This document shows, piece after piece, positions 38,824-49,602 of a DNA stretch of 64,000 nt. The DNA lies in assembly GCA_038727135.1 (NCBI GenBank), contig JAVYWL010000002.1, forward strand, positions 257,115 through 321,114, in the 5' to 3' direction. The translations under genes were made by a program, and so were the position numbers. The notes under the pieces are model-generated. The model had not been told where the DNA came from. It did no database searches and saw only the letters and a list, made by a program, of their open reading frames with translations. Numbering within the stretch: position 1 is the first letter of the stretch; every line of letters begins with the position of its first letter. Source of the stretch: Candidatus Bathyarchaeia archaeon (GTDB lineage: Archaea > Thermoproteota > Bathyarchaeia > Bathyarchaeales > Bathycorpusculaceae).

Positions 38824-39051
38824 TGACACCCTCAACTTTGGTTAAATTTTGATTATTTGTTGTAAAGACTTAAACAAGGTTAACTAATAACTTTTATGTG
38901 GAAGAGGCCAGAAACACAGAAATCTACACCATAATAGAACGCAGACTAATTCAAGCCAGCTTCAAATGTATATGCCACCATGAAGGCGCAACGCTCTTCA
39001 GAAAAAGAAAATAGGGAGCCCATGATTAAAAATGGTCGAGGCTACCCAGGT

Positions 39052-39128
39052 GGCCGAGGTGAGGTAGCCTGGAAGCCTACGGGCCTGTGGAGCCCGGCGC
39101 CCGGGTTCAAATCCCGGCCTCGGCCCCA
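39052..39128 (+). tRNA. tRNA-His(GUG) with encoded G-1 and CCA; integration target
   Basis: G GCCGAGG...CGGGC CT GTG GA GCCCG...CCGGG TTCAAAT CCCGG CCTCGGC C CCA. Confidence 0.93.
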
Positions 39129-39130
39129 CA
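39084..39130 (+). repeat. attL, 47-bp direct repeat
   Basis: CCTGTGGAGCCCGGCGCCCGGGTTCAAATCCCGGCCTCGGCCCCACA, identical at 47621-47667. Confidence 0.97.
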
Positions 39131-39389
39131 AATCAGAACCTACGGTTCCGATACCTCCCTTGTTTTCGCTTAATCCCTCGTTCTGGGCTTCTAAATGTGA
39201 TATTATGCTTGAAAGGGCTTCCTCGAGGATTTTTGAAAGGTTTAAACCGTTTTTCCGTGCTTTTTCCACCAAAAATTTAGACAGGTATAGGCCTACGGTT
39301 GTTTTAGCTTCTGTTTGCCTGTGAGATCTTCCTCGAGGAGTATAGCCGAGTTTCCTCGAGGAATTTAGGCTTATGCCTGCTTTACTCAT
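39084..39389 (-). CDS. Integrase N-terminal fragment int(N) with RHH/CcdA-like segment
   Basis: Reads into att as WGRGRDLNPGAGLHR, the same peptide that opens the int(C) ORF. Confidence 0.85.
39220..39362. repeat. Three copies of palindrome TCCTCGAGGA
   Basis: At 39220-39229, 39330-39339 and 39353-39362, each preceded by T. Confidence 0.8.
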
Positions 39390-39964
39390 GGCTTCACACC
39401 TTCTTGTTGTGTTGTTAACGGTTCAAGCCTTTTTAGAAAACGTTGTTTCATTTCTTCCTCTGTTTCTTCCCAAATAATGTATCCAAAAATTTGCCTAGCT
39501 TTAAACAACATATTAGGGTTTCTCTTTTTTGAAGCTTGATAAATACTGTTTCTCACGTGGCTTAACAAATCTTGCTCTTTTCTCCAATCTTCAAATGGAG
39601 GAAGAAAGCCTAACCATAAAATAGCTTGTTTGCCTTGAAACTCTAGGCTGTCTTTCTCTTTAAAAAGCTCTATAATCTCTTCAATGGTGAACGTTTTCGG
39701 TTCCTTGCCTAATTCTTTAAGAAGCTCATTAAACTGAGGATAGACTGCTCTGTAAACTCCCTTCTTAACCGGCCGAATGGCTGTTTTTGCCAAGGGGATT
39801 TTATCTAGCGCATATTTCAACGTTTCCCAAGCAACTTTCCTCGACAAACCTGTTCTCTCCGTTATCTCCTTCATTCGCAACTCTTGCTTAAATGGACTGA
39901 AACAATCCAAAATTAGTGACAAGTTAGCTTTCCTTCTCCGGCTTAACGTTTCTTTTTGGCTCAT
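39386..39964 (-). CDS. Winged-HTH DNA-binding protein
   Basis: LRMKEITERTGLSRKVAWETLK HTH pattern; coupled to int(N) by a 4-nt overlap. Confidence 0.7.
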   Translation of the reverse strand: MSQKETLSRRRKANLSLILDCFSPFKQELRMKEITERTGLSRKVAWETLKYALDKIPLAKTAIRPVKKGVYRAVYPQFNELLKELGKEPKTFTIEEIIELFKEKDSLEFQGKQAILWLGFLPPFEDWRKEQDLLSHVRNSIYQASKKRNPNMLFKARQIFGYIIWEETEEEMKQRFLKRLEPLTTQQEGVKP

Positions 39965-40045
39965 TTTTTATCTTTCCTTTTAGGTTTTTAGTAACAAAAA
40001 TGGTCAAAGACATATATAAATGTTCCTCATTGACTTTCATCGGAG

Positions 40046-40171
40046 ATGAAAATGTCTCAGAAAAAGAAGCGTCATCCAATCATCAGGGCATATTGGCGGG
40101 AAATGCAAAGACAATATAGGGCTAGAAAAAAGGCTCAGCAAAAAGCTGAGGAGCGTAATAAGCATGACTGA
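40046..40171 (+). CDS. Small basic protein (41 aa), absent from ORF track
   Basis: MKMSQKKKRHPIIRAYWREMQRQYRARKKAQQKAEERNKHD; GGAG upstream, TATA at about 40013, overlaps the next ATG. Confidence 0.6.
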   Translation: MKMSQKKKRHPIIRAYWREMQRQYRARKKAQQKAEERNKHD

Positions 40172-40562
40172 CACGGATTTCAAGATTTTCTTGGATGATT
40201 TGGTGGATTGTCTTAATGAGTGGGAAGAGGCTGCAGATAGGGCTTTAAGAGGCGTGCGGAAGCTTAAGGTTCAAATCGCTAAGCTTGTTGGAGTGAACGT
40301 TGGGCCTAGGATTTCCGAGGAAACCTTTGCTTGTCTTAAATGGCAACCTGAGAAAGGTGCTCGTTTAGGCGATTATGAATGCGCCTACAAGAACCAAAAC
40401 ATATTGGAAAATTGGCAACACGCCTATAACATTCTGAAGGCAAACAATTCAGTTATTGGCAACCCTTTCCATGAAGAAGGCTATCAATATCGCTATTGGA
40501 TTTACCCTGAAAAACACCCTGACAGGATTTTCCGCAAAAAGCTGGAAGAGGCTAAGGCTTAA
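40164..40562 (+). CDS. Hypothetical protein of the element's replication operon
   Basis: Translationally coupled (TAATG) to the ATPase gene. Confidence 0.7.
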   Translation: MTDTDFKIFLDDLVDCLNEWEEAADRALRGVRKLKVQIAKLVGVNVGPRISEETFACLKWQPEKGARLGDYECAYKNQNILENWQHAYNILKANNSVIGNPFHEEGYQYRYWIYPEKHPDRIFRKKLEEAKA

Positions 40563-42334
40563 TGGCTGAGGCTTTTATGCAGGTTTGGAGAACTCAAAAT
40601 CTTGTCGACTATGTTTTGGCTGATTTGGAGAGGCGTGTTAAGAGGGATAGGGCTACAAAGCTTAGCGTGTTTTTCACGGGGCTTTCAGCTTACACTAGAG
40701 AACCCATTAACCTGTTTTTGAAGGGTGAAAGTGGAAGTGGCAAGTCGTATAATGTGGTGCAGACGCTTAGGTATTTCCCTCAAGAGGATGTTTGGTTTCT
40801 TGGCGGTTTAAGCCCTAAAGCCCTCATTCATGAGCATGGCGTTCTGCTCAACAAGCATGGTGAACCCCTTGATTTGGAAGATAGGCCCATCAAGCCTAAA
40901 AGGAAGAATTACGCCTCGGAAGAGGAATACCGAGAGGCCCTTAAAGAATACCATGAGGAACTCAGGGCTTATGCTGAGGAAATCCGGGAAGGCTATACGC
41001 TTATCAATTTGCGGAATAAAATTTTAGTTTTCCTTGAGGTCCCTGAATACGAAACCTTCAAAATGCTTTACCCAATTCTTTCCCATGACACGGAAAGGAT
41101 AGAATACAGGTTTACAGACAAATCCGCTAAAGGCCCTTTGAGAACGGTTAAAGTTGTGATTGAAGGATGGCCTGCAACCATATTTCTGACAACTGATAAG
41201 CATTACATGGAAGAACTTGCCACTCGCAGCTTCACGGTTACACCTGAAGTTTCTAAAGAGAAAATCGAACAGGCCAATATATTAACTAACCTAAAGGCTA
41301 GTTTTCCATGGGAATACAGTGAGGAAACAGAGGAAGCCAAATGCATTAAAGCCTTGATTGAAAGCCTAAAAAAGCAGTTGACAGGCGGAAAAACAAGCGT
41401 AGCTATTCCGTTTTCAAACCTTTACGAGCTTTTCCCTAAAGAGATTGCCAGGGATATGCGGGATTTTCAGCACTTCATTCAATTTTTGAAGGCTTTAACA
41501 ATTCTACACTTCTTTCAGAGGCCTTTCATAAGAGTAGGTGATAAAAGGTTCATAGTTTCAACCGTGGAAGATGTTAGGAAGGCTCTTGAAATTTATGCGG
41601 AGCTTTTTGAAACAACACGCACAGGAACAGAACAAAGAATCCTAAGCTTCTATCATGACATAGTAAAGGGAAAAGAGTCGTGGTTTCTAACGGATTTGGT
41701 TGAGGCCTATAACGAGAAGGCTGAGAGAAAGGTTAGCTCTGAAACAGTTAGAAGATGGCTTGAGAGGCTTTCAGAAATAGGATATGTGAACATTGAGAAA
41801 AGTGATTTGGATAAGAGGCTTAACGTTTACAAGCCTTTAGTTAAAGAGGAAAAATCCACAATCCGCCAAAAATTGGAAATGTGGACAGTTTCAAGCTTAG
41901 AATTGGAAAAGGGCTTTAAAAAATGGTTAGAAAAAATCCACAACACAAGAGGCTTAGAAATAAAAAACAAAATTTTCGCCTACAAAACCATAGATGAAAA
42001 CAGGGAAACATGGGGAGAATCTGAGATTTCCATTGAAGAGTTTTCAAAGGTGGTTTTAGGCGGAGCTTGTTCTGAAAATTTTTATTTTAATTCCGAGCGT
42101 GGTGTGTTGAGGATTTCTTTAGAGGAGAAAAAAGAGCCTTTTTCAGAGAAGAAGCCTGAAATTGTCCACATTTGCGAAAATAGTGGAATGTTGGATAATT
42201 CAGACACGTTTAAGGGCCTCATTCCATGTGAACTTTGTAGGGCTCAGGGTAGGCCCATATTTTTCGCTACTCTTGAGGATTTGAAAATCCATGTTAAGGC
42301 TTTTCATGGCGGTTTCCCTGACTATGTGAGGTGA
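40562..42334 (+). CDS. P-loop AAA+ ATPase, putative replication helicase, with wHTH and C-terminal C2H2-like Zn finger
   Basis: Walker A GESGSGKS, ILVFLE, ELATRSF, RDMRDF; SETVRRWLERLSEIGY; CELC...HVKAFH. Confidence 0.7.
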   Translation: MAEAFMQVWRTQNLVDYVLADLERRVKRDRATKLSVFFTGLSAYTREPINLFLKGESGSGKSYNVVQTLRYFPQEDVWFLGGLSPKALIHEHGVLLNKHGEPLDLEDRPIKPKRKNYASEEEYREALKEYHEELRAYAEEIREGYTLINLRNKILVFLEVPEYETFKMLYPILSHDTERIEYRFTDKSAKGPLRTVKVVIEGWPATIFLTTDKHYMEELATRSFTVTPEVSKEKIEQANILTNLKASFPWEYSEETEEAKCIKALIESLKKQLTGGKTSVAIPFSNLYELFPKEIARDMRDFQHFIQFLKALTILHFFQRPFIRVGDKRFIVSTVEDVRKALEIYAELFETTRTGTEQRILSFYHDIVKGKESWFLTDLVEAYNEKAERKVSSETVRRWLERLSEIGYVNIEKSDLDKRLNVYKPLVKEEKSTIRQKLEMWTVSSLELEKGFKKWLEKIHNTRGLEIKNKIFAYKTIDENRETWGESEISIEEFSKVVLGGACSENFYFNSERGVLRISLEEKKEPFSEKKPEIVHICENSGMLDNSDTFKGLIPCELCRAQGRPIFFATLEDLKIHVKAFHGGFPDYVR

Positions 42335-42645
42335 ATAGCCCCGGCATGGTTAAGTTTGAGGTTATTAAGGGCCGGAAAGGACCAAACGACAGGCTTGTTA
42401 AAGTGTGGGCTTATGGAGAAATTTTCAGCATCGAAGCCCTCCTCAGGCTTCTCCAAATCTTTTTTGAAGGTGAGGATTTCGCTTATCCAATTGAAAAGGG
42501 AAAGCAGGGCCGAGCCATGCTTCTTAAAGCCATAATAGACGTGGCCCTAGGCATTCCCATAGAACGAGTTTTAAAAGCTTACCGCTTGAACAGGAAAAGG
42601 CCCAAAACAAAGGTTGTCGAGAAGCTTCACGAGGTTATAAAGTAA
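42331..42645 (+). CDS. Hypothetical protein
   Basis: Coupled to both neighbours (GTGA and TAATG overlaps). Confidence 0.65.
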   Translation: MNSPGMVKFEVIKGRKGPNDRLVKVWAYGEIFSIEALLRLLQIFFEGEDFAYPIEKGKQGRAMLLKAIIDVALGIPIERVLKAYRLNRKRPKTKVVEKLHEVIK

Positions 42646-43229
42646 TGCCATGGTATAGAAGGCATGGGAAAGCTGCAACACCAATCACTTTTGAAGAATT
42701 TCTAAGGGCCATGGAGAGGGCTAAGTCTATTAAACCTGAACATAGGGCTTTTGCAGCTCTGCTCTATTACACAGGTGTGAGGCGTGGAGAAGCCTTAAGG
42801 GCGGTTAAAGAACAATTTTGGGTTAAAGACGGCTTTCTCTTTTTTGATGTGGGTAAACGCCTTAAAGGTGGAAGGGAAACTCCGCCTCTAAACATTCCCT
42901 TAAATGCTCCTTATGTTTTGGATATTTGGCGTGTTGTTAAGAAAACAGGGAAAGGTGAAAGGGTTTTCCCATTTACTGATAGAACAGCCTACAACATTAT
43001 TTGTAGGGTTTTTAACACTTACCCGCATCACTTGAGGCTGAGCAGGATAACCGATTTTCTCATGAAGGGCTTTAATATTGCAGAAGTGAAAAGCTGGACA
43101 GGCCATGCTTCGACAAAAAGTTTAGACAGTTACGTGGGTATTGTGGATGTTCATAGAATGGGTGAATCCCTTATTGGAAAACCAACAAATAAAATAATGA
43201 AACTTAAACAAAACAGAAACGAAAAATGA
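42645..43229 (+). CDS. Minimal tyrosine recombinase (catalytic domain only)
   Basis: YTGVRRGEAL, K, HHLR, TGH, SY catalytic set in 194 aa. Confidence 0.85.
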   Translation: MPWYRRHGKAATPITFEEFLRAMERAKSIKPEHRAFAALLYYTGVRRGEALRAVKEQFWVKDGFLFFDVGKRLKGGRETPPLNIPLNAPYVLDIWRVVKKTGKGERVFPFTDRTAYNIICRVFNTYPHHLRLSRITDFLMKGFNIAEVKSWTGHASTKSLDSYVGIVDVHRMGESLIGKPTNKIMKLKQNRNEK

Positions 43230-43343
43230 AGCTAAACACCATTGGATTTCCAAAAATTCATGGGTTTTATTTTGTTTGAGTTTCATTTTAATGCTCGTTC
43301 AATGAGTGCCAAGCATCAAGAAACTTGGTGTAGTTTGCTAGTT

Positions 43344-43694
43344 TCATTGGGCATTGTTTGCATTCTCTGTTCTTGCATAGTTTTTACCTACGTTCCCTTC
43401 CATTCTTCTACCGGCTCCCCCCCATTTCCTAGAAATTTTTTCTTTGCTTTGGTTAATGTATTTGGAGAGAATGGCTTTTTCAAGGTCTATTTCAAAGTAG
43501 TTAGCGAGGGCTGTACAGCAGAAGATTATGTCTGCCAGTTCTTCTTCTATGTTTTTGGATTTCTCCTTTTTTAAAGCATCTGCTAATTCGCCTACTTCTG
43601 CAGATAATACTACAAAAAGGAAGTATGCCCCTCGCTTTTTGTCCTCTTCGCCGTACTGTTCTTTCATTTGTTCTTGGAAAGTTCTAAAATCCAA
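43344..43694 (-). CDS. MazG-like NTP pyrophosphohydrolase
   Basis: AEVGELADA...EEELADI...LAN motif. Confidence 0.88.
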   Translation of the reverse strand: MDFRTFQEQMKEQYGEEDKKRGAYFLFVVLSAEVGELADALKKEKSKNIEEELADIIFCCTALANYFEIDLEKAILSKYINQSKEKISRKWGGAGRRMEGNVGKNYARTENANNAQ

Positions 43695-43766
43695 GTTTAT
43701 CCCTCATCACGACAATGCTTTAATCTTATTTAGAGTGTTAGGCTTATTAAAAATGAGGCCCAAGAA

Positions 43767-44789
43767 ATGGCTAAACCTGCATTATGCGATTTTAAGTGTC
43801 ATGATTGCCATGTTGGCGAGAGGGGTGGGGGGATTCATCAACAGGTTTTAAAATCTCTTTGTTTATTGGGTAGAAAACATGGATTGTACGCTAAAGATGA
43901 ATGGGTATCTCCGTCGTTTTCTGGCGGGGTTCAACCTGAAAAAGATGAATATTCTCCCTCCATAGATATGGTTTGGTTCATTGACCTTGTTGATGCCGTC
44001 GGCGAGGATAAGTTTAGTAGGCTTCATTCAGTCGTATCAATGTGGACTGATGAGAAAATTCCGAGAGATGTGTTGCGTTTTCTTCCATATGTTGCTTTTG
44101 AGGTTGAGGTAAGTGATGTAACAAGTAAGACGGTTTACTCGGACTTTCATAATTTGGCTGCGACGAGGGCGGCGATTAAAATTGAGGTTATTCGAGAAGT
44201 TGGTGATATGAATCTTAAACGGGCTGAGAGAATTAGGGAATCAGCAATTCGATTCTGCGGGGATACAGATATGTTTGTTTTAACTATACCCATGCTTGAA
44301 GATATTTTGAAAATGGAAGAGCGCTTTCCAGCGTCTTGTTTGTTAACTGAAAGGGAAACCCGTAAGATCAAACCGATACAGAAGAAATTAGTTTCTCTTG
44401 GAACCGGATTGAACCTAAAAGGAGAGGCTGAATTTACCCCGCCTGAATGCAGGGGAGTGTATATTCCCAGACTTGATGCCGCTTGGCTTGTGAGTGTGCC
44501 TAAGGCTGCGGCGGCTTTGTTGGCAACTATTTCCAAAAGGTATTCATTGAGAATTGCGAGGGACCTCTGTCATTTGACGTTGTTTGGTTTTGAATATGAA
44601 AAGGAAACCGGTCATAAACATATAGCTGGAGGTGTAGCAAATCTTTCACGTCATTCTTTCATAGGTTTTCTTGTGGCCCCTAGCGAGAAGGCTTTTGTTG
44701 CGAAAAGGATCGTTAACAAGTATTCGCTAGCTTTTGGTTATAATAACATTTTTGTTGTTAGCGAAGACGCTGTTTTAGGGGAGGCTTGA
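43767..44789 (+). CDS. Putative nuclease with two tandem PD-(D/E)XK-like domains
   Basis: Internal duplication: EWVSP..PSIDMVW..AFEVE..K..NL and EFTPP..PRLDAAW..GFEYE..K..NL. Confidence 0.65.
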   Translation: MAKPALCDFKCHDCHVGERGGGIHQQVLKSLCLLGRKHGLYAKDEWVSPSFSGGVQPEKDEYSPSIDMVWFIDLVDAVGEDKFSRLHSVVSMWTDEKIPRDVLRFLPYVAFEVEVSDVTSKTVYSDFHNLAATRAAIKIEVIREVGDMNLKRAERIRESAIRFCGDTDMFVLTIPMLEDILKMEERFPASCLLTERETRKIKPIQKKLVSLGTGLNLKGEAEFTPPECRGVYIPRLDAAWLVSVPKAAAALLATISKRYSLRIARDLCHLTLFGFEYEKETGHKHIAGGVANLSRHSFIGFLVAPSEKAFVAKRIVNKYSLAFGYNNIFVVSEDAVLGEA

Positions 44790-44790
44790 A

Positions 44791-45429
44791 ATGATTACCG
44801 TTGAACAAATCAGGCAAATAGTAAATTCAAACTTCAGGATGCGAGAGCCGCCTGTTGAAAAGTTGACTGTCAAGTCACTGGAAGATGCTGTGAGAATTTG
44901 GGATGACCCTGACGTTTTGGGTTTCTTTGAGAATAAGGCTATGAAGTGGCAGCCAAAAAATGAAACCGCGGTTTTTATACCATGTTCAGCTTGGAAACCT
45001 TATTTTTACTCTCAAAGCCACAAGGATGGATATTTGAAGGCTTTACTACCTTTCCTTGAAAGAATCGATCTTTTTGTTGTTAGTGAGCCCATGGTGATAG
45101 TTCCATATTGCTATAGCGACGAGTATCCTGTCAAGAGCTATGATTATGACCCAAGCAAGTATTTCATGGGTAAACTTTCGCATCCTTTAGTAAAACAGTC
45201 TCTAAACATTTTCATTGAGCGACTGAGTAAATGGGTAACAAAGTACGACGGACAATATTCCAAGAAAATTTTAATACTACCTAAAGGCTGGCATCTTAAA
45301 GTCTTCCTGAAAGCGTTGAAGCACGCAAAAGTATCGACAAGCCAATACAATATTGTGTCAATGACCGGGCGGGCCTTCCAAGTCGTAAATAGTATTAATC
45401 AGCAGGTTGAAAAATATATGGGAGCTTAA
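44791..45429 (+). CDS. Stand-alone DUF5591 (archaeosine synthase ArcS core-like) protein
   Basis: FIPCSAWKPY..SQSH and SEP..IVP......YP...YD match the ArcS PCSxxKPYxxSxSH signature. Confidence 0.7.
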   Translation: MITVEQIRQIVNSNFRMREPPVEKLTVKSLEDAVRIWDDPDVLGFFENKAMKWQPKNETAVFIPCSAWKPYFYSQSHKDGYLKALLPFLERIDLFVVSEPMVIVPYCYSDEYPVKSYDYDPSKYFMGKLSHPLVKQSLNIFIERLSKWVTKYDGQYSKKILILPKGWHLKVFLKALKHAKVSTSQYNIVSMTGRAFQVVNSINQQVEKYMGA

Positions 45430-46313
45430 AATTTTTAAAATTGCGTGTTAGAGAGTTTCCTATGCTCATTTTTTGTTTTGGGTCTTGTATGTGCCCTTGT
45501 TTTCGTGAAAAAGCCTAGATGAGAATAACGTCTTCTTCTTTTATTTTTTAATTTCTAAAGCCTTATAATGGGCTTAGTAACCTTTTAGATTTAGGAAGTG
45601 TGTTTTGTGAGTAAAAAGGCTACAACGTGATTTATTCCCGTCCCCTAGTGGATGTTGAACCTTTGATTACACTTATTTTTTGCACAGTGTTCCTAAGGAT
45701 GAAGTTGCTCCCAAACTTTCTGTTGCTGAAAAATGGGGAGGAATCATGAGAGGTTCTCCACTCAGATTCCTTTTGACGATGGAGAAATAAGAGAATACTG
45801 AAAGACTTGGGGCGAGATTTGATGAATAACTTCCGCAGATAAATTATTATAGCTTGTGAAAATAGGCATTTTTAGAAACTTTGATTTCATCAGGCTTTTC
45901 CTAAAATTTCCGTAATAGGAAATTTAACGTTGAATCAAAACAGTTTTCCAAAACCTCTTTAACATTGAAAAAGAAACCTTCAGGTTTACAAGCGATAAAA
46001 GTTTTGAACGTTTCTTTCAAGGTTCAGGTTATTTATCAAAGCTGTTAAACGGTTTCCATTCTGTCTCTAGTAAAAATTAATTGGAAAATCTACTCATCCA
46101 AAACATTAAAGAAAAGCGGTTAAAAACAACAGTTTAAACCCTTCATTTTTTCATTCAATAGAAAGCCTTCCAAAGGTTTCCCATTTAACCGTAACCAGCA
46201 TAAACGTTAAAAATAAGCCGGAAACTCAAAAAAGGAAACGTGGGAGGAGTAACTGTCGGGGGTGCAAATCCCCCTGGTAATGGCCCATTACTTATCTGTA
46301 TAGAAATTTAATT

Positions 46314-46688
46314 TTAAAAGAATATTTTTTGAGCATCTCTTAGGAGTTTTTCTAAAGACTCTTGAGTTTTACGTTTAACGCGTTTCCTTTTTTCAGTTAC
46401 TTTTTTAGTTCCCTTCTTAACCCCAAGCCTCCTCCATAACTGTTCTTTAGTTATCTCTCCGTTGTGGACCCTATTATGGCAAGTTCCACATAAAGCAATT
46501 ATATTGTCAGGAGTGTTGTGACAAGGGTTTTCATCAATATGATGAAACTCTTGAACTGGTTGTTTCCTGCACCACATGCAAACACCCTTAGATTTAATCC
46601 ATAACTGTTTCTCGATGCTTCTAGGAATTCGCTTCCTTCTCCTTTCTTCTTCCCATAATGATGGGAGTTTAGGAAGTTTAAGTGACAT
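46314..46688 (-). CDS. HNH endonuclease
   Basis: CMWC...HHID...N.PDN...LCGTCHNRVH. Confidence 0.88.
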   Translation of the reverse strand: MSLKLPKLPSLWEEERRRKRIPRSIEKQLWIKSKGVCMWCRKQPVQEFHHIDENPCHNTPDNIIALCGTCHNRVHNGEITKEQLWRRLGVKKGTKKVTEKRKRVKRKTQESLEKLLRDAQKIFF

Positions 46689-46762
46689 TTCCCCTTCCCG
46701 GTGGAATTTTTAAAGTTTTGATGATAAAAAATTAACGGTTGGGACTAAAATTTTAGTCCTCT

Positions 46763-47668
46763 TCAACTTAACACCTTCAAACAAGCCTTATCATAAACTT
46801 CCTTCAGCCTTTCAATACTTAAATCCAAGTAATGGCGCGCCAAAACAGAGCGTGGAACTCTTCCGCAAAAAGCGTCAATATATGAATCGCTTACGCCAAG
46901 CCTAGCCATTTCACTGCAGAACCACTCCCTAAGCTTTTGAGGAGTTAAACGTAGCCCTGTTTTAAGCTGAGCCCTTTTCCAAAACTTTAGGAAAGTTTTA
47001 CCGCTTATCCTGAACAGCTTAATGCTTCCATCATGCCTTGAAGTCAAATACTCTTTAAGCGCTTTTTCCGCCTCATCATTGTAAAAGGTTACGTAGCTCC
47101 TTTTTGTTGTGCTGTCATGGTTAGGCATAACCATACGCTTGTTGAAATCCACATCGCTAATTTTAAGCCCTAAAACCTCACGTTTCCTAAGCCCTGTCGT
47201 GGCATACATGAGAAACAAAGCCCTCTCAATAGGCCTTTCTAAAGCTTCATAAAACCGCCTCAAATCATCCTTTGTCGGAACCTTTTTCAACTTGAAAGGT
47301 TTCCTAGGCAAACGGAAACTTTCAACAACCATAGGCATTTCAAGATAGTCCCTGAAAAACCTCCTTAAAGCCTTCAAAACATTGCTATAAGTGTAAGCGC
47401 TGCAACCGTCAAAACGCTTTAAATACTCACGCACAACTTCCCTTGAAACATTCCTGAACCCGCTATCCCTAAACCATTCAAGAAACCTTTTAACCTCAAA
47501 CAAATGCTCCTTAACCGTAACCTCGCTAAGCCTCAAATCAACCCTCAAGAAATCCGCAAACCCCTCAACCAAACCCTCACTTAAGGGAAGATGATAAGAA
47601 ACCGTAGGTGTCTTATCATACCTGTGGAGCCCGGCGCCCGGGTTCAAATCCCGGCCTCGGCCCCACAT
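46763..47668 (-). CDS. Tyrosine integrase C-terminal fragment int(C)
   Basis: TGLRKREV, TTK, QKLR, CGR, RHY; N-terminus spans attR; ATG at 47668. Confidence 0.9.
   Translation of the reverse strand: MWGRGRDLNPGAGLHRYDKTPTVSYHLPLSEGLVEGFADFLRVDLRLSEVTVKEHLFEVKRFLEWFRDSGFRNVSREVVREYLKRFDGCSAYTYSNVLKALRRFFRDYLEMPMVVESFRLPRKPFKLKKVPTKDDLRRFYEALERPIERALFLMYATTGLRKREVLGLKISDVDFNKRMVMPNHDSTTKRSYVTFYNDEAEKALKEYLTSRHDGSIKLFRISGKTFLKFWKRAQLKTGLRLTPQKLREWFCSEMARLGVSDSYIDAFCGRVPRSVLARHYLDLSIERLKEVYDKACLKVLS
47621..47667 (+). repeat. attR, 47-bp copy of tRNA-His 3' half
   Basis: Identical to 39084-39130. Confidence 0.97.
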
Positions 47669-47832
47669 ATAGTGCCTTAACCCGGGATTTTTGGACAGCA
47701 CCATGTCAATGGCTGTTTTTGATATAACATTTCAACGCTCCACCATTAGAAAACCACGCCAAACTTTTCAGAAAAGGAAATGGAGCCTTGGAAATAGAAC
47801 GGGAGTACGCTGGTTCGTAAGTACAATAAAAG

Positions 47833-47964: not shown

Positions 47965-48675
47965 TTGGATGCCTTTGTTAGTCTGGATTTTTTGCGTAGT
48001 AGGCTTCCTTCTGATTTGTTGGAGGAGTTGGCCTTGTTTTTAGGTTTGTGTTTTGAGTGTGGGGGTCGTTTACGTAGAATTGATGGAGAGGTTGTTTGTG
48101 AGGGGTGTGGACGTGTTTGGGGCTATGAGAACGTTGATGAAAGTGTTCCTTTCCCCGAAGGAGGGAATGATGGGGCGGATAGCCATTTTGAGGGGCATTG
48201 GCAGCCCGGTAACAGCCTATGCTTCTTGAAAGGTCTAGGCGATCCAACACTAGAAAATAATGGACGTGAGAGGAGTTTGATGCGGGTTTTGGCTTTGGCT
48301 CCAGCCCAAGGCGAGGACCTGGGCCTAAGAGCCCGCAGAATAAAGGTTATGGTGCAGGCTGAGGACCCGCCACAGCTTAGAAGAATCCTATCCAGAATTT
48401 CACAACTCCTAGATAAGCTTGGATTTCGTGGAAACTATGAGATCGCGGCTTATACTGGGAATTTAGCTAGGAAAATTGTTGCTTTTGCCTTGGCTGCCCG
48501 GTTATCGATTCCATCCACATGGGCCGACGCTATAGTTCGGCATACCCTCAACAAGCTACAGTTGAAAATAGCATCAAGCGATAATATTTTAAAGTTTAAG
48601 GATGAGGACTTGCAGTTTGTCGAATGGTTCGATAACGCAGTCAAGAAGTTTAAGCTCAAAGAGGCTTCTAAGTAA
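47965..48675 (+). CDS. Zn-ribbon protein (TFB/TFIIB-like N-terminus)
   Basis: CFECGG...DGEVVCEGCGRV; helical C-terminus. Confidence 0.6.
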   Translation: MDAFVSLDFLRSRLPSDLLEELALFLGLCFECGGRLRRIDGEVVCEGCGRVWGYENVDESVPFPEGGNDGADSHFEGHWQPGNSLCFLKGLGDPTLENNGRERSLMRVLALAPAQGEDLGLRARRIKVMVQAEDPPQLRRILSRISQLLDKLGFRGNYEIAAYTGNLARKIVAFALAARLSIPSTWADAIVRHTLNKLQLKIASSDNILKFKDEDLQFVEWFDNAVKKFKLKEASK

Positions 48676-48687
48676 TCATTGTACATT

Positions 48688-49602
48688 TTAGGGCGTAAGC
48701 CAAGGCTCCGCTAACGTGCGATATGCTTCTCTCCAACTTTCTCGGCTTTTGCTGATGTAGACTATTTGTTGTTCTGGGACTTTGTGGCCCATCCAAAACT
48801 CTATGTAAAGCGGATCAACCTTATGATCGCTTAATATTGTGCGGAAAGCAGCCCTAAGCGAATGTGGGCTATAGGGGTTCCTTCCAACGAAACGTCCTCC
48901 AAACTTTTCGCCTATTCTTGCGAAGTAGCTGTCAACAGCCCTAGCAGAAACCGTGAATAATGGCGTGTCCTCCTGCATGGCTCTGCCTTCCAAATGCTGT
49001 TTTAGAAGCGACAAAGCCCATCCGCCAAGAAATGTTAGGAAGGGGATGTTTGTCTTCTTCCTTGAAAGGTCTAGGCATACAGGCGTAATGTGCCCTTCAA
49101 ACTCGTTTTTGATATCGCCGTATTTTAGGCCCAGCAAATCTGATATGCTTAAGCCGCTTTGAACTATGCAGGCTGCAATACAGCGATATTGAATGTTATC
49201 CATTAGCGATGTGAATCTGCCGATTTCCTCGATGGTCCATGAATGCTTTTTGTGGAGGGCTTTTGCTGGTGGTCGGCTGACATAACGCATACTTAATGGG
49301 ATGTCATAGTATTTGGCTAGGGATTGGACGGCTCCAACATAAGTGTTTATTGATTTGGGGGCAAAGCCTTCACACTGCAAATAGCCAATAAAAGCGTTTA
49401 ACGTCTTACGGGCTACCCGCGTCTTCTCCAGCCTAGGCTTATGAAGGTCTTCTTCCATCAGCCTCAAAAAACCAGCCACATCGAGGCCTTGCCCAGCCAA
49501 AAACTCCTGGAATTTGGTTAGGGCCCTAGCATATATGTGGCGGGTTCCAGGCTTGAGGGCTGAGAGGAACTCGTCGACTTCTGGCGATGATGGCGATGTC
49601 AT
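48688..49602 (-). CDS. Tyrosine recombinase with atypical box I (SGLSISD, Arg replaced by Ser)
   Basis: Core-binding domain (APKSINTY), RKKT, PHSLR, MGH, VY. Confidence 0.88.
   Translation of the reverse strand: MTSPSSPEVDEFLSALKPGTRHIYARALTKFQEFLAGQGLDVAGFLRLMEEDLHKPRLEKTRVARKTLNAFIGYLQCEGFAPKSINTYVGAVQSLAKYYDIPLSMRYVSRPPAKALHKKHSWTIEEIGRFTSLMDNIQYRCIAACIVQSGLSISDLLGLKYGDIKNEFEGHITPVCLDLSRKKTNIPFLTFLGGWALSLLKQHLEGRAMQEDTPLFTVSARAVDSYFARIGEKFGGRFVGRNPYSPHSLRAAFRTILSDHKVDPLYIEFWMGHKVPEQQIVYISKSRESWREAYRTLAEPWLTP

Follow-up and report, generated by a model that had tools for sequence, protein, structure and literature searches.

A mobile gene trio of Bathyarchaeia joins a tandem restriction-endonuclease-like protein, a stand-alone ArcS core and MazG in a candidate defense module

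Why is the core of archaeosine synthase (ArcS), an enzyme acting on tRNA, encoded directly behind a nuclease-like protein on a mobile element? The question is raised by a locus of a hot-spring archaeon, Candidatus Bathyarchaeia archaeon, within a stretch of 64,000 nt (contig JAVYWL010000002.1 of GCA_038727135.1, positions 257,115-321,114, forward strand), which was analyzed as a whole and is called the window here. An integrative element of ~8.5 kb at the tRNA-His gene carries as its cargo three genes (the trio), encoding a MazG-type pyrophosphohydrolase, a 340-aa protein related to restriction endonucleases and a 212-aa protein consisting of the ArcS core (DUF5591). The open reading frames (ORFs) of the latter two lie on the plus strand with a gap of 1 bp, and the MazG gene is transcribed divergently. 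An earlier, sequence-only reading had marked these genes as a candidate for a new defense or modification module and offered two branches, namely a system like restriction-modification (RM) with a non-methyl modification, or a sensor/nuclease against deazaguanine-modified invader DNA. The positions of the three ORFs, the 1-bp gap and the 72-bp divergent spacer, all taken from that reading, proved to be right. In the following, we argue tentatively for a nuclease-based, modification-dependent system close to its second branch. The features of the locus are:

43344-43694, minus strand: MazG-type nucleoside-triphosphate pyrophosphohydrolase, 116 aa as read in the window (Pfam MazG, 6.6e-10)
43695-43766: divergent intergenic spacer of 72 bp between the MazG gene and the gene of the 340-aa protein
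43767-44789, plus strand: 340-aa protein
43767-44321, plus strand: its N-terminal half, restriction-endonuclease-like domain 1 (D67, E112-x-E114, K121, N129)
44322-44789, plus strand: its C-terminal half, restriction-endonuclease-like domain 2 (D237, E276-x-E278-K279, K284-H285, G288, N292)
44791-45429, plus strand: stand-alone ArcS core (DUF5591, "ArcS2-like"), 212 aa (Pfam PF17884, 1.7e-11)

The proteins of the trio

The 340-aa protein matches no Pfam, NCBIfam, PADLOC or PHROG family. Its nuclease fold, assumed earlier from the letters, was checked on an AlphaFold2 model calculated from a 16-sequence alignment (predicted local distance difference test, pLDDT, 81.9; predicted template modeling score, pTM, 0.83). 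Both halves of the model align to PD-(D/E)XK (restriction endonuclease-like) chains and show the alpha-beta-beta-beta-alpha-beta core of this fold. In a VIA-align comparison with 48,161 chains, the top 50 rows were mostly restriction-endonuclease-like nucleases. Residues 200-340 were aligned to AF1548 (1y88; Z 8.9, root-mean-square deviation (rmsd) 3.2 over 105 residues) and VC1899 (Z 7.5), Can2 was matched by residues 52-340 (Z 8.9) as well as 191-340 (Z 7.3), and residues 18-264 were aligned to the small subunit of R.BspD6I (2p14; Z 8.8, rmsd 3.5 over 129 residues), N.BspD6I (7.8), NucS (7.3), FokI (7.2), PaqCI (7.2), BglII (6.7) and OkrAI (6.5), with Z values of 7-9 being middling by the tool's own caution and drawing their weight from the consistency of the list and the separate match of each half. 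Local Foldseek rows point in the same direction with MspJI (probability 0.96) and PaqCI (0.90), and domain-level rows from BFVD comprise PD-(D/E)XK and Mrr-type proteins (probability 0.89-0.99, E>1e-3).

An internal duplication, likewise part of the sequence-only reading, is moderately supported by comparing the two halves with each other, which gave E 3e-4 and 25/102 identical residues in BLASTP and, for hhalign of the half-alignments, a probability of 80.8% (E 1.3e-5, 149 columns). Both halves share a signature in which D67/D237 opens a strand, an ExE (E112/E114, E276/E278) closes the next strand and K121 or K284-H285 sits on the following helix, followed by N129 or N292. Across 26 sequences down to 22% identity, P64, D67, P107, N129, D237, E276, K284, H285 and G288 are invariant, and E112, E114, K121, E278 and N292 are at least 90% conserved. 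With respect to the D...(D/E)xK motif, a glutamate occupies the canonical lysine position in both halves, a D...ExE arrangement that we take to be the known BamHI-type variant. Close to the N-terminus, residues 7-24 (43785-43838) form a C7-x3-C11-x2-C14...H24 cluster of low pLDDT, which is invariant in the close family (as is C32) and missing in most distant family members; it may represent a zinc knuckle specific to the close clade.

Scanning 1.84 billion representatives with the family profile returned 78 proteins at E<=1e-3. Most of them are 350-380 aa long and match both halves, some crossing over in such a way that the C-terminal half of the query falls on the N-terminal half of the target. 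A Pfam domain was found in none of the 32 members scanned, and the distant homologues in the protein atlas belong only to "hypothetical protein" clusters (Bacillota, Bathyarchaeota, Chloroflexota), besides one lead to an NmeDI_C cluster at 0.82. Neither family scans nor fold matches indicated a separate DNA-recognition domain in the 340-aa protein. Taken together, the fold matches, the conserved residues and the duplicated halves suggest that it belongs to a family, as yet without a name, of restriction-type nucleases with two domains in one chain and predicted cleavage activity.

For the 212-aa protein, its designation as a stand-alone ArcS-like protein with the full motif was confirmed by profile as well as by structure. 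It scores 44.6 bits against the PF17884 cut-off of 26, reads ...IPCSAWKPYFYSQSH... and has the motif P64-C65-x3-K69-P70-Y71-x2-S74-x2-H77 intact (PCSAWKPYFYSQSH at residues 64-77). Within 41 DUF5591 homologues, P64, K69, P70, Y71, S74 and H77 are invariant and C65 is at least 90% conserved. The profile built from these homologues matched one solved chain, PDB 2q07 (AF0587; 2.2e-6, with the motif aligned), which is also the sole Foldseek match at E<=1e-3 of the AlphaFold2 model (pLDDT 95.4; E 7.3e-5, probability 1.00). The full-length ArcS models NF040592 and NF053620 are matched only in part, scoring 41.8 and 40.9 bits where 600 and 440 would be required, with only the model positions 213-302 and 276-354 covered, and the protein departs from the canonical ArcS architecture by having no TGT-like N domain, no C2 and no PUA domain. 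A complex prediction for the 340-aa and 212-aa proteins, both supplied as alignments, scored 0.01 relative to a mark of 0.32, a value that counts neither way on binding.

The third protein exceeds the cut-off of Pfam PF03819 (39.6 vs. 22 bits), matches MazG-like at 1e-6 and has the metal-binding ExxE and ExxD motifs of MazG enzymes (AEVGE...EELAD); its nearest solved relative is PDB 1vmg (Sulfolobus SSO3215, 95 aa, 1.2e-14). At the 3' end of the gene (43395-43405), the window has a run of seven G and the near-identical related locus L003 a run of six, and the last ~25 codons are frame-shifted. Reading six G by eye restores a tail resembling that of the 102-103-aa homologues and leaves the catalytic core untouched; the difference reflects either a mistake of assembly in the homopolymer or a genuine variant of the tail. 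The 72-bp spacer is presumed to act as a shared promoter region, and the same divergent layout recurs in the related loci with gaps of ~66-77 bp.

Linkage, mobility and distribution

Scans of genomes and metagenomes led to 18 loci. One of them (L002) was dropped as a spurious 40-residue match at a contig end, immediately preceded by a coiled-coil P-loop ORF of 905 aa that we read as Rad50-like. All 10 loci whose nuclease homologue is at least 64% identical (L001, L003-L011) have MazG on the minus strand followed by nuclease and DUF5591 on the plus strand in the same order, with spacers of ~1-22 bp between the latter two. They do not represent 10 independent cases, as L003 is the window's own element (99-100% identical) and the pairs L001/L005 and L007/L008 share contexts. 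In L008, the DUF5591 gene is broken into two reading frames. All three proteins lose identity in step, from 76/81/85% for nuclease, DUF5591 and MazG in L001 to 65/73/63% in L010. Since the trio is kept in every one of these close loci, its arrangement is not due to chance. MazG is also found divergently upstream of the nuclease gene in two further loci, in L016 at a distance of 66 bp (Pfam 1.2e-16) and with no DUF5591 gene, and in L018, which is a fragment.

The sites occupied by the trio vary, comprising tRNA-His (window, L003), tRNA-Leu(TAG) (L001, L005) and, together with an integrase, tRNA-Pro (L006), and the backbone genes of the window's element were found only in L003. The trio is therefore conserved mobile cargo, moving between elements. 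It is also rare. The nuclease profile is matched in one of 401 genomes of the phylum sample, that of the host itself, and the DUF5591 clade at E<=1e-15 in three of 401 genomes of the class and in none of the three other genomes of the same genus. Relatives of both were sought in 2.9 million viral contigs and none was found. By tblastn, the nuclease had no match among 50,697 phage records and 72,556 plasmids, nor did a distant member of its family when compared with the plasmids.

Concerning the neighborhood, L007 encodes just upstream of the trio (L007:3177-4073) a 298-aa EVE+NucS_C fusion that corresponds to the PADLOC candidate PDC-S02 at 4.8e-40. L016 is accompanied by HerA (7e-37) and a PbeA/XPB-like helicase, and L011 by an ABC-ATPase/GNAT protein with weak "mad" matches. 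The remaining flanks of the trio loci hold integrases, unknown ORFs and ordinary genes. Two nuclease homologues with 58% identity (L013:2271-3313 and L014:8001-9042), which belong to one lineage, are frame-shifted near the N-terminus. They have neither MazG nor DUF5591 beside them, adjoin an ORF of 123-132 aa with a HELLH motif and are probably decaying copies.

The assignment of the trio to the cargo of a tRNA-His element held, its borders being given by two 50-nt att repeats. The features of the element outside the trio are:

39053-39128: tRNA-His(GTG)
39084-39133, plus strand: attL, 50 nt repeated in direct orientation, within the 3' half of the tRNA-His gene
42645-43229: short integrase-like protein of the element
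46763-47704, minus strand: tyrosine integrase (XerA-like, SSV-type; Pfam Phage_integrase 1.9e-15, NCBIfam XerA 2.9e-29)
47621-47670, plus strand: attR, the matching 50-nt copy (98% identity), falling within the integrase ORF at its 5' end

Further ORFs of the element encode a wHTH-like (winged helix-turn-helix) protein of 192 aa, a 132-aa protein, a P-loop protein of 590 aa, a 104-aa protein and an HNH protein of 124 aa. A contig of run X1 spans 39129-47497 unbroken, its left end lying within the attL repeat and its right end ~120 bp short of attR. A tRNA-derived peptide, WGRGRDLNPGAGLHR, constitutes the C-terminal end of the ORF 39042-39389 (minus strand) and also the start of the integrase ORF. 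The integrase is of the SSV type, its att site lying within its own gene, and integration has therefore divided this gene into an N and a C part.

The segment between the DUF5591 gene and the integrase (45430-46688) is variable. In the window it consists of ~880 bp (45430-46313) free of ORFs of at least 50 aa and of the gene of the 124-aa HNH protein. From ~46040-46220 onward, L003:7715-10419 and the contigs of runs X2 and X4 differ from the window and hold other ORFs instead (148 and 198 aa), and hardly any reads of X2, X4 and X9 cover the HNH region. Contig joints across the element (39135->47833 and others) were considered as empty-site alleles and not counted, with sides of only 22-25 letters that consist of tRNA-like sequence. 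Directly beyond attR, at 47965-49602, there follow a 236-aa protein containing a CxxC...CxxC cluster and another ORF resembling tyrosine recombinases (48688-49602, minus strand), perhaps belonging to a neighboring second integrated element or to what is left of one.

Host 7-deazaguanine genes and the proposed function of the trio

The host was searched for genes that would make preQ0 (7-cyano-7-deazaguanine) or transfer it to nucleic acid. The host genome (1.55 Mb, 7 contigs, 94.7% complete) has a single TGT-family gene, located on another contig (G000 C3, L021:1468-3093) and identified as arcTGT (TgtA, 572 bits vs. a cut-off of 350), whose DUF5591-like C1 domain has a degenerate motif, PQTRAKPYHKSEEY. 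No second TGT or DpdA and no DUF5591 protein besides the 212-aa one were found in this genome. Its best QueC match is GuaA (GMP synthase), leaving none credible, and QueD and QueF gave 0 matches, with Pfam QueF ringing in 0/4 archaeal control genomes, so that a QueF-L could be missed. In line with the sequence-only reading, a family scan of 10 ORFs of the element revealed no TGT or DpdA; it likewise revealed no methyltransferase family, neither in these ORFs nor in the scanned flanks of the related loci. Judged by its gene content, the host apparently has no route to preQ0 and no enzyme to place it in DNA. Its tRNA seems to receive a 7-deazaguanine obtained by salvage, with the element-borne protein as the host's only recognizable archaeosine synthase.

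Two other genomes with relevant homologues, G730 (which holds the trio copy L001) and G627, have an arcTGT-like gene, a stand-alone DUF5591 gene and only weak QueC matches (25-28 bits). A 2.6-kb contig (L062; G401/G730 contig C119, 235-2471) encodes a 387-aa BrxC/D-like or ORC-like ATPase followed with a 4-bp overlap by a 358-aa TGT-like protein, the latter scoring 179.8 against the TgtA cut-off of 350, with a weak DpdA match and 25% identity to the DpdA of STSV2 (E 1e-8). This pair, which shares its metagenome-assembled genome with a copy of the trio, probably represents part of an archaeal DNA-marking system of the DpdA type. In a different family, stand-alone DUF5591 ORFs of 178-196 aa adjoin a TGT-like (DpdA-like) gene (L030, L031 and L033 in G361, G289 and G223), representing either chromosomal or proviral DpdA-ArcS2 pairs.

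The reading that we favor, tentatively and with less than even confidence, is that of a nuclease-based, modification-dependent (Type IV-like) system for defense or for competition between elements. The 340-aa protein would be its effector, a pseudo-dimer whose two D...ExE...K sites could cut both strands of DNA. Specificity would be contributed by the ArcS core, binding and perhaps processing preQ0-type bases, which are to our knowledge the only substrate class of this fold. Such bases might be part of invader DNA or build up in cells infected by viruses producing them. MazG, as an enzyme hydrolyzing (d)NTPs, would sanitize modified dNTPs and thereby keep host DNA free of the targeted base; alternatively, it could deplete nucleotides as a second effector. 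Among the branches proposed earlier, the sensor/nuclease against deazaguanine-modified invader DNA appears to be the most economical one. In favor of the Type IV-like reading count the linkage of the three genes, their mobility as cargo, the defense-type neighbors in L007 and L016, the nuclease fold with its conserved residues, the intact ArcS motif, the gene content of the host and, as regards plausibility only, the bacterial precedents for attacking 7-deazaguanine DNA.

Several observations weigh against this reading. In addition to its middling fold Z scores, the 340-aa model has no whole-chain Foldseek match at E<=1e-3 in PDB or BFVD. Among Type IV enzymes, pure reader domains are usually non-catalytic, whereas the ArcS motif of the 212-aa protein looks catalytically intact, and we know of no virus or phage with modified DNA for this host. 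In G730, a self-marking DpdA partner acting in trans is possible. The nuclease can do without the ArcS core, as a downstream DUF5591 gene is present in 0/6 of the more distant loci (L012-L017, 49-58% identity). Conversely, the DUF5591 gene of G627 (56% identical) stands solitary among chromosomal genes, including those of transporters, a CN-hydrolase and a CxxCxxCC protein, with no nuclease or MazG within ~7 kb and with an arcTGT-like gene in the same genome, which hints at an ancestral role in tRNA modification. Defense-type neighbors were seen at only two of the flanked loci, and no PADLOC model is matched by any of the three proteins. The trio holds together in the close loci and not in the distant ones, so that the three genes do not form one ancient unit. 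The lack of DUF5591 in the distant loci, the MazG gene kept in L016 and the solitary gene of G627 mark MazG and nuclease as the older core, which the ArcS core joined in one subclade.

One rival reading is a generic nuclease-based defense or addiction module, in which DUF5591 would have a role outside 7-deazaguanine, for example as a regulator, inhibitor or antitoxin of the nuclease or by binding another nucleotide. The nuclease family with its 78 representatives is mostly devoid of a known partner and Pfam-less wherever tested, the MazG-nuclease pair occurs on its own in L016, and the only loci with no MazG (L013, L014) are those with frame-shifted nuclease genes, as would fit a protective partner. 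We consider such a module rather unlikely, because the near-invariant ArcS motif in the 41 homologues is hard to explain unless a preQ0-type pocket or chemistry is still in use. The opposite emphasis, namely that the 212-aa protein functions as an archaeosine synthase and completes G15 of the host tRNA after insertion of preQ0 by arcTGT, would turn nuclease and MazG into unrelated neighbors or into a toxin-like pair tied to the state of tRNA modification. It is favored by the host's arcTGT with its degenerate C1-like motif and no other DUF5591 protein beside it, and by the chromosomal homologue of G627, which occurs together with the same arcTGT-like gene. Set against this, the 212-aa protein has neither the PUA nor the C2 domain that canonical ArcS uses for tRNA, its gene is translationally coupled to that of a DNA-nuclease-like protein in all close loci, its presence in 0/3 congeneric genomes and 3/401 of the class is not that of a housekeeping gene, and the tandem restriction-endonuclease-like domains suggest DNA as a substrate, which makes a tRNA-directed function unlikely. 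A further possibility is that nuclease and MazG serve the element itself in replication, recombination or nucleotide supply, for example as a resolvase-like or host-DNA-degrading activity combined with a shaping of the dNTP pool, and with no defense involved. The trio is always located in or adjoining integrative elements, NucS and other nucleases of repair and recombination are among the fold matches, and MazG and dUTPase-like genes are described in PMC10516641 as common in viruses and as lying inside a phage 7-deazaguanine cluster. The trio, however, shifts among backbones, and replication-type genes such as that of the 590-aa P-loop protein are found only in L003; it occupies the variable, integrase-proximal end of the element, and no homologue was found in the viral contigs, phage records or plasmids searched. 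We regard such a household function as improbable.

Least probable of all is the other branch of the sequence-only reading, an RM-like distinction of self and non-self in which the ArcS core turns dPreQ0 in the DNA of element or host into dG+ or a mark akin to it, the nuclease cuts unmarked DNA and DpdA is supplied in trans. Precedents for the required gene pair exist, as ArcS2 lies directly behind DpdA in STSV1, STSV2 and STSV4, a TGT-like gene adjoins the stand-alone DUF5591 gene in L030, L031 and L033, and G730 has the 358-aa TGT-like gene behind its BrxD-like ATPase. There is, however, no TGT-like gene in or beside the trio by tblastn in the window, L001 and L003-L011, the QueC matches of G730 and G627 are weak, and the host has arcTGT only. 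Since no genes for preQ0 synthesis or for a DNA transglycosylase were found in the 94.7%-complete host genome, self-modification of this kind is disfavored, and we consider it very unlikely. A bolder form of modification-dependent defense, mark-and-cut immunity, would use the same poverty to its advantage: in a host devoid of preQ0, the nitrile base itself would be the signal of non-self. By attaching an amine (lysine, ammonia or even the lysine of a protein) to the preQ0 nitrile in invading DNA, the ArcS core would convert a restriction-evading mark into a bulky adduct or covalent handle that licenses the tandem nuclease, with MazG destroying the modified dNTPs. Although we deem this scheme quite improbable, it would, if true, be the first immune system to chemically rewrite viral DNA hypermodification by means of a tRNA-modification enzyme.

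The Type IV-like reading gains its interest from the fact that 7-deazaguanine marks in DNA are a widespread viral counter-measure to restriction. With 1.9 kb, the trio is a compact, conserved and rare candidate that combines an intact ArcS core, a two-site nuclease and MazG with no transglycosylase. A function in defense would also assign a role to a Pfam-less nuclease family of 78 representative clusters and to the non-viral stand-alone DUF5591 proteins. Should the trio instead turn out to be tRNA-directed or an addiction module, this would still be a new use of the ArcS core.

Comparison with known systems

The closest relatives in gene organization are the viral DpdA-ArcS2 pairs. According to PMC10516641, ArcS proteins of phages and viruses consist of the C1-type core only and were renamed ArcS2, with the motif PC-x3-KPY-x2-S-x2-H; dPreQ0 in DNA is given there as the substrate of the stand-alone viral enzyme, and ArcS2 of Vibrio phage nt-1 produced dG+ in plasmid DNA only if DpdA2 was co-expressed. 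The 212-aa protein shows 27.7% identity to ArcS2 of STSV2 in an alignment covering 91% of its length; it also corresponds to phrog_34505 (6.2e-13). As in the viral pairs, a DUF5591-only core with the full motif is the second gene of a tight two-gene mobile unit; the gene in front of it is DpdA in STSV1, STSV2 and STSV4 and that of the tandem nuclease-like protein in the trio. In contrast to the viral pairs, the trio adds MazG, comprises no thymidylate synthase or preQ0 pathway genes and is found with no DpdA in either element or host. Canonical ArcS, which converts preQ0-15 of tRNA to G+ together with RaSEA, has the C1 domain and the motif in common with the 212-aa protein. It is a housekeeping enzyme with TGT-like N, C2 and PUA domains, whereas the 212-aa gene is mobile, sporadic and reduced to the core.

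On the side of the effector, R.BspD6I/N.BspD6I, FokI, PaqCI and the BamHI/BglII-type enzymes belong to the same fold class (Z 6.5-8.8) and likewise rely on two catalytic-type domains; the 340-aa protein shows no sequence similarity to these two-site nucleases and unites both domains in one chain. The bacterial Dpd system (DpdA-K) resembles the trio in setting 7-deazaguanine enzymes near nucleases or ATPases on genomic islands and differs from it by its signature enzyme DpdA; the trio itself comprises no helicase or ATPase genes. MazG is listed as a predicted, unvalidated defense or dNTP-targeting domain in PMC13092281 and PMC12871103. PADLOC-DB 2.0.0 returned 0 families at E<=0.1 for any of the three proteins, and the open-access literature searched on DUF5591, on archaeosine synthase and defense and on 7-deazaguanine restriction contained no account of a module of this composition, nor did the literature searches bring up an archaeal counterpart of the defenses that target 7-deazaguanine.

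In its proposed logic, the trio comes closest to Type IV restriction, in which a nuclease is combined with a module recognizing a modified base. Two bacterial defenses against 7-deazaguanine DNA have been described recently, GrwAB (PMC12137116) and the Dag glycosylases (bioRxiv 10.1101/2025.10.29.685425). Their proteins are unrelated to those of the trio, which has no DUF262/GmrSD or glycosylase fold, is archaeal and adds MazG. In place of a reader of the SRA, EVE or PUA type, the trio has an apparently active enzyme core as its candidate reader.

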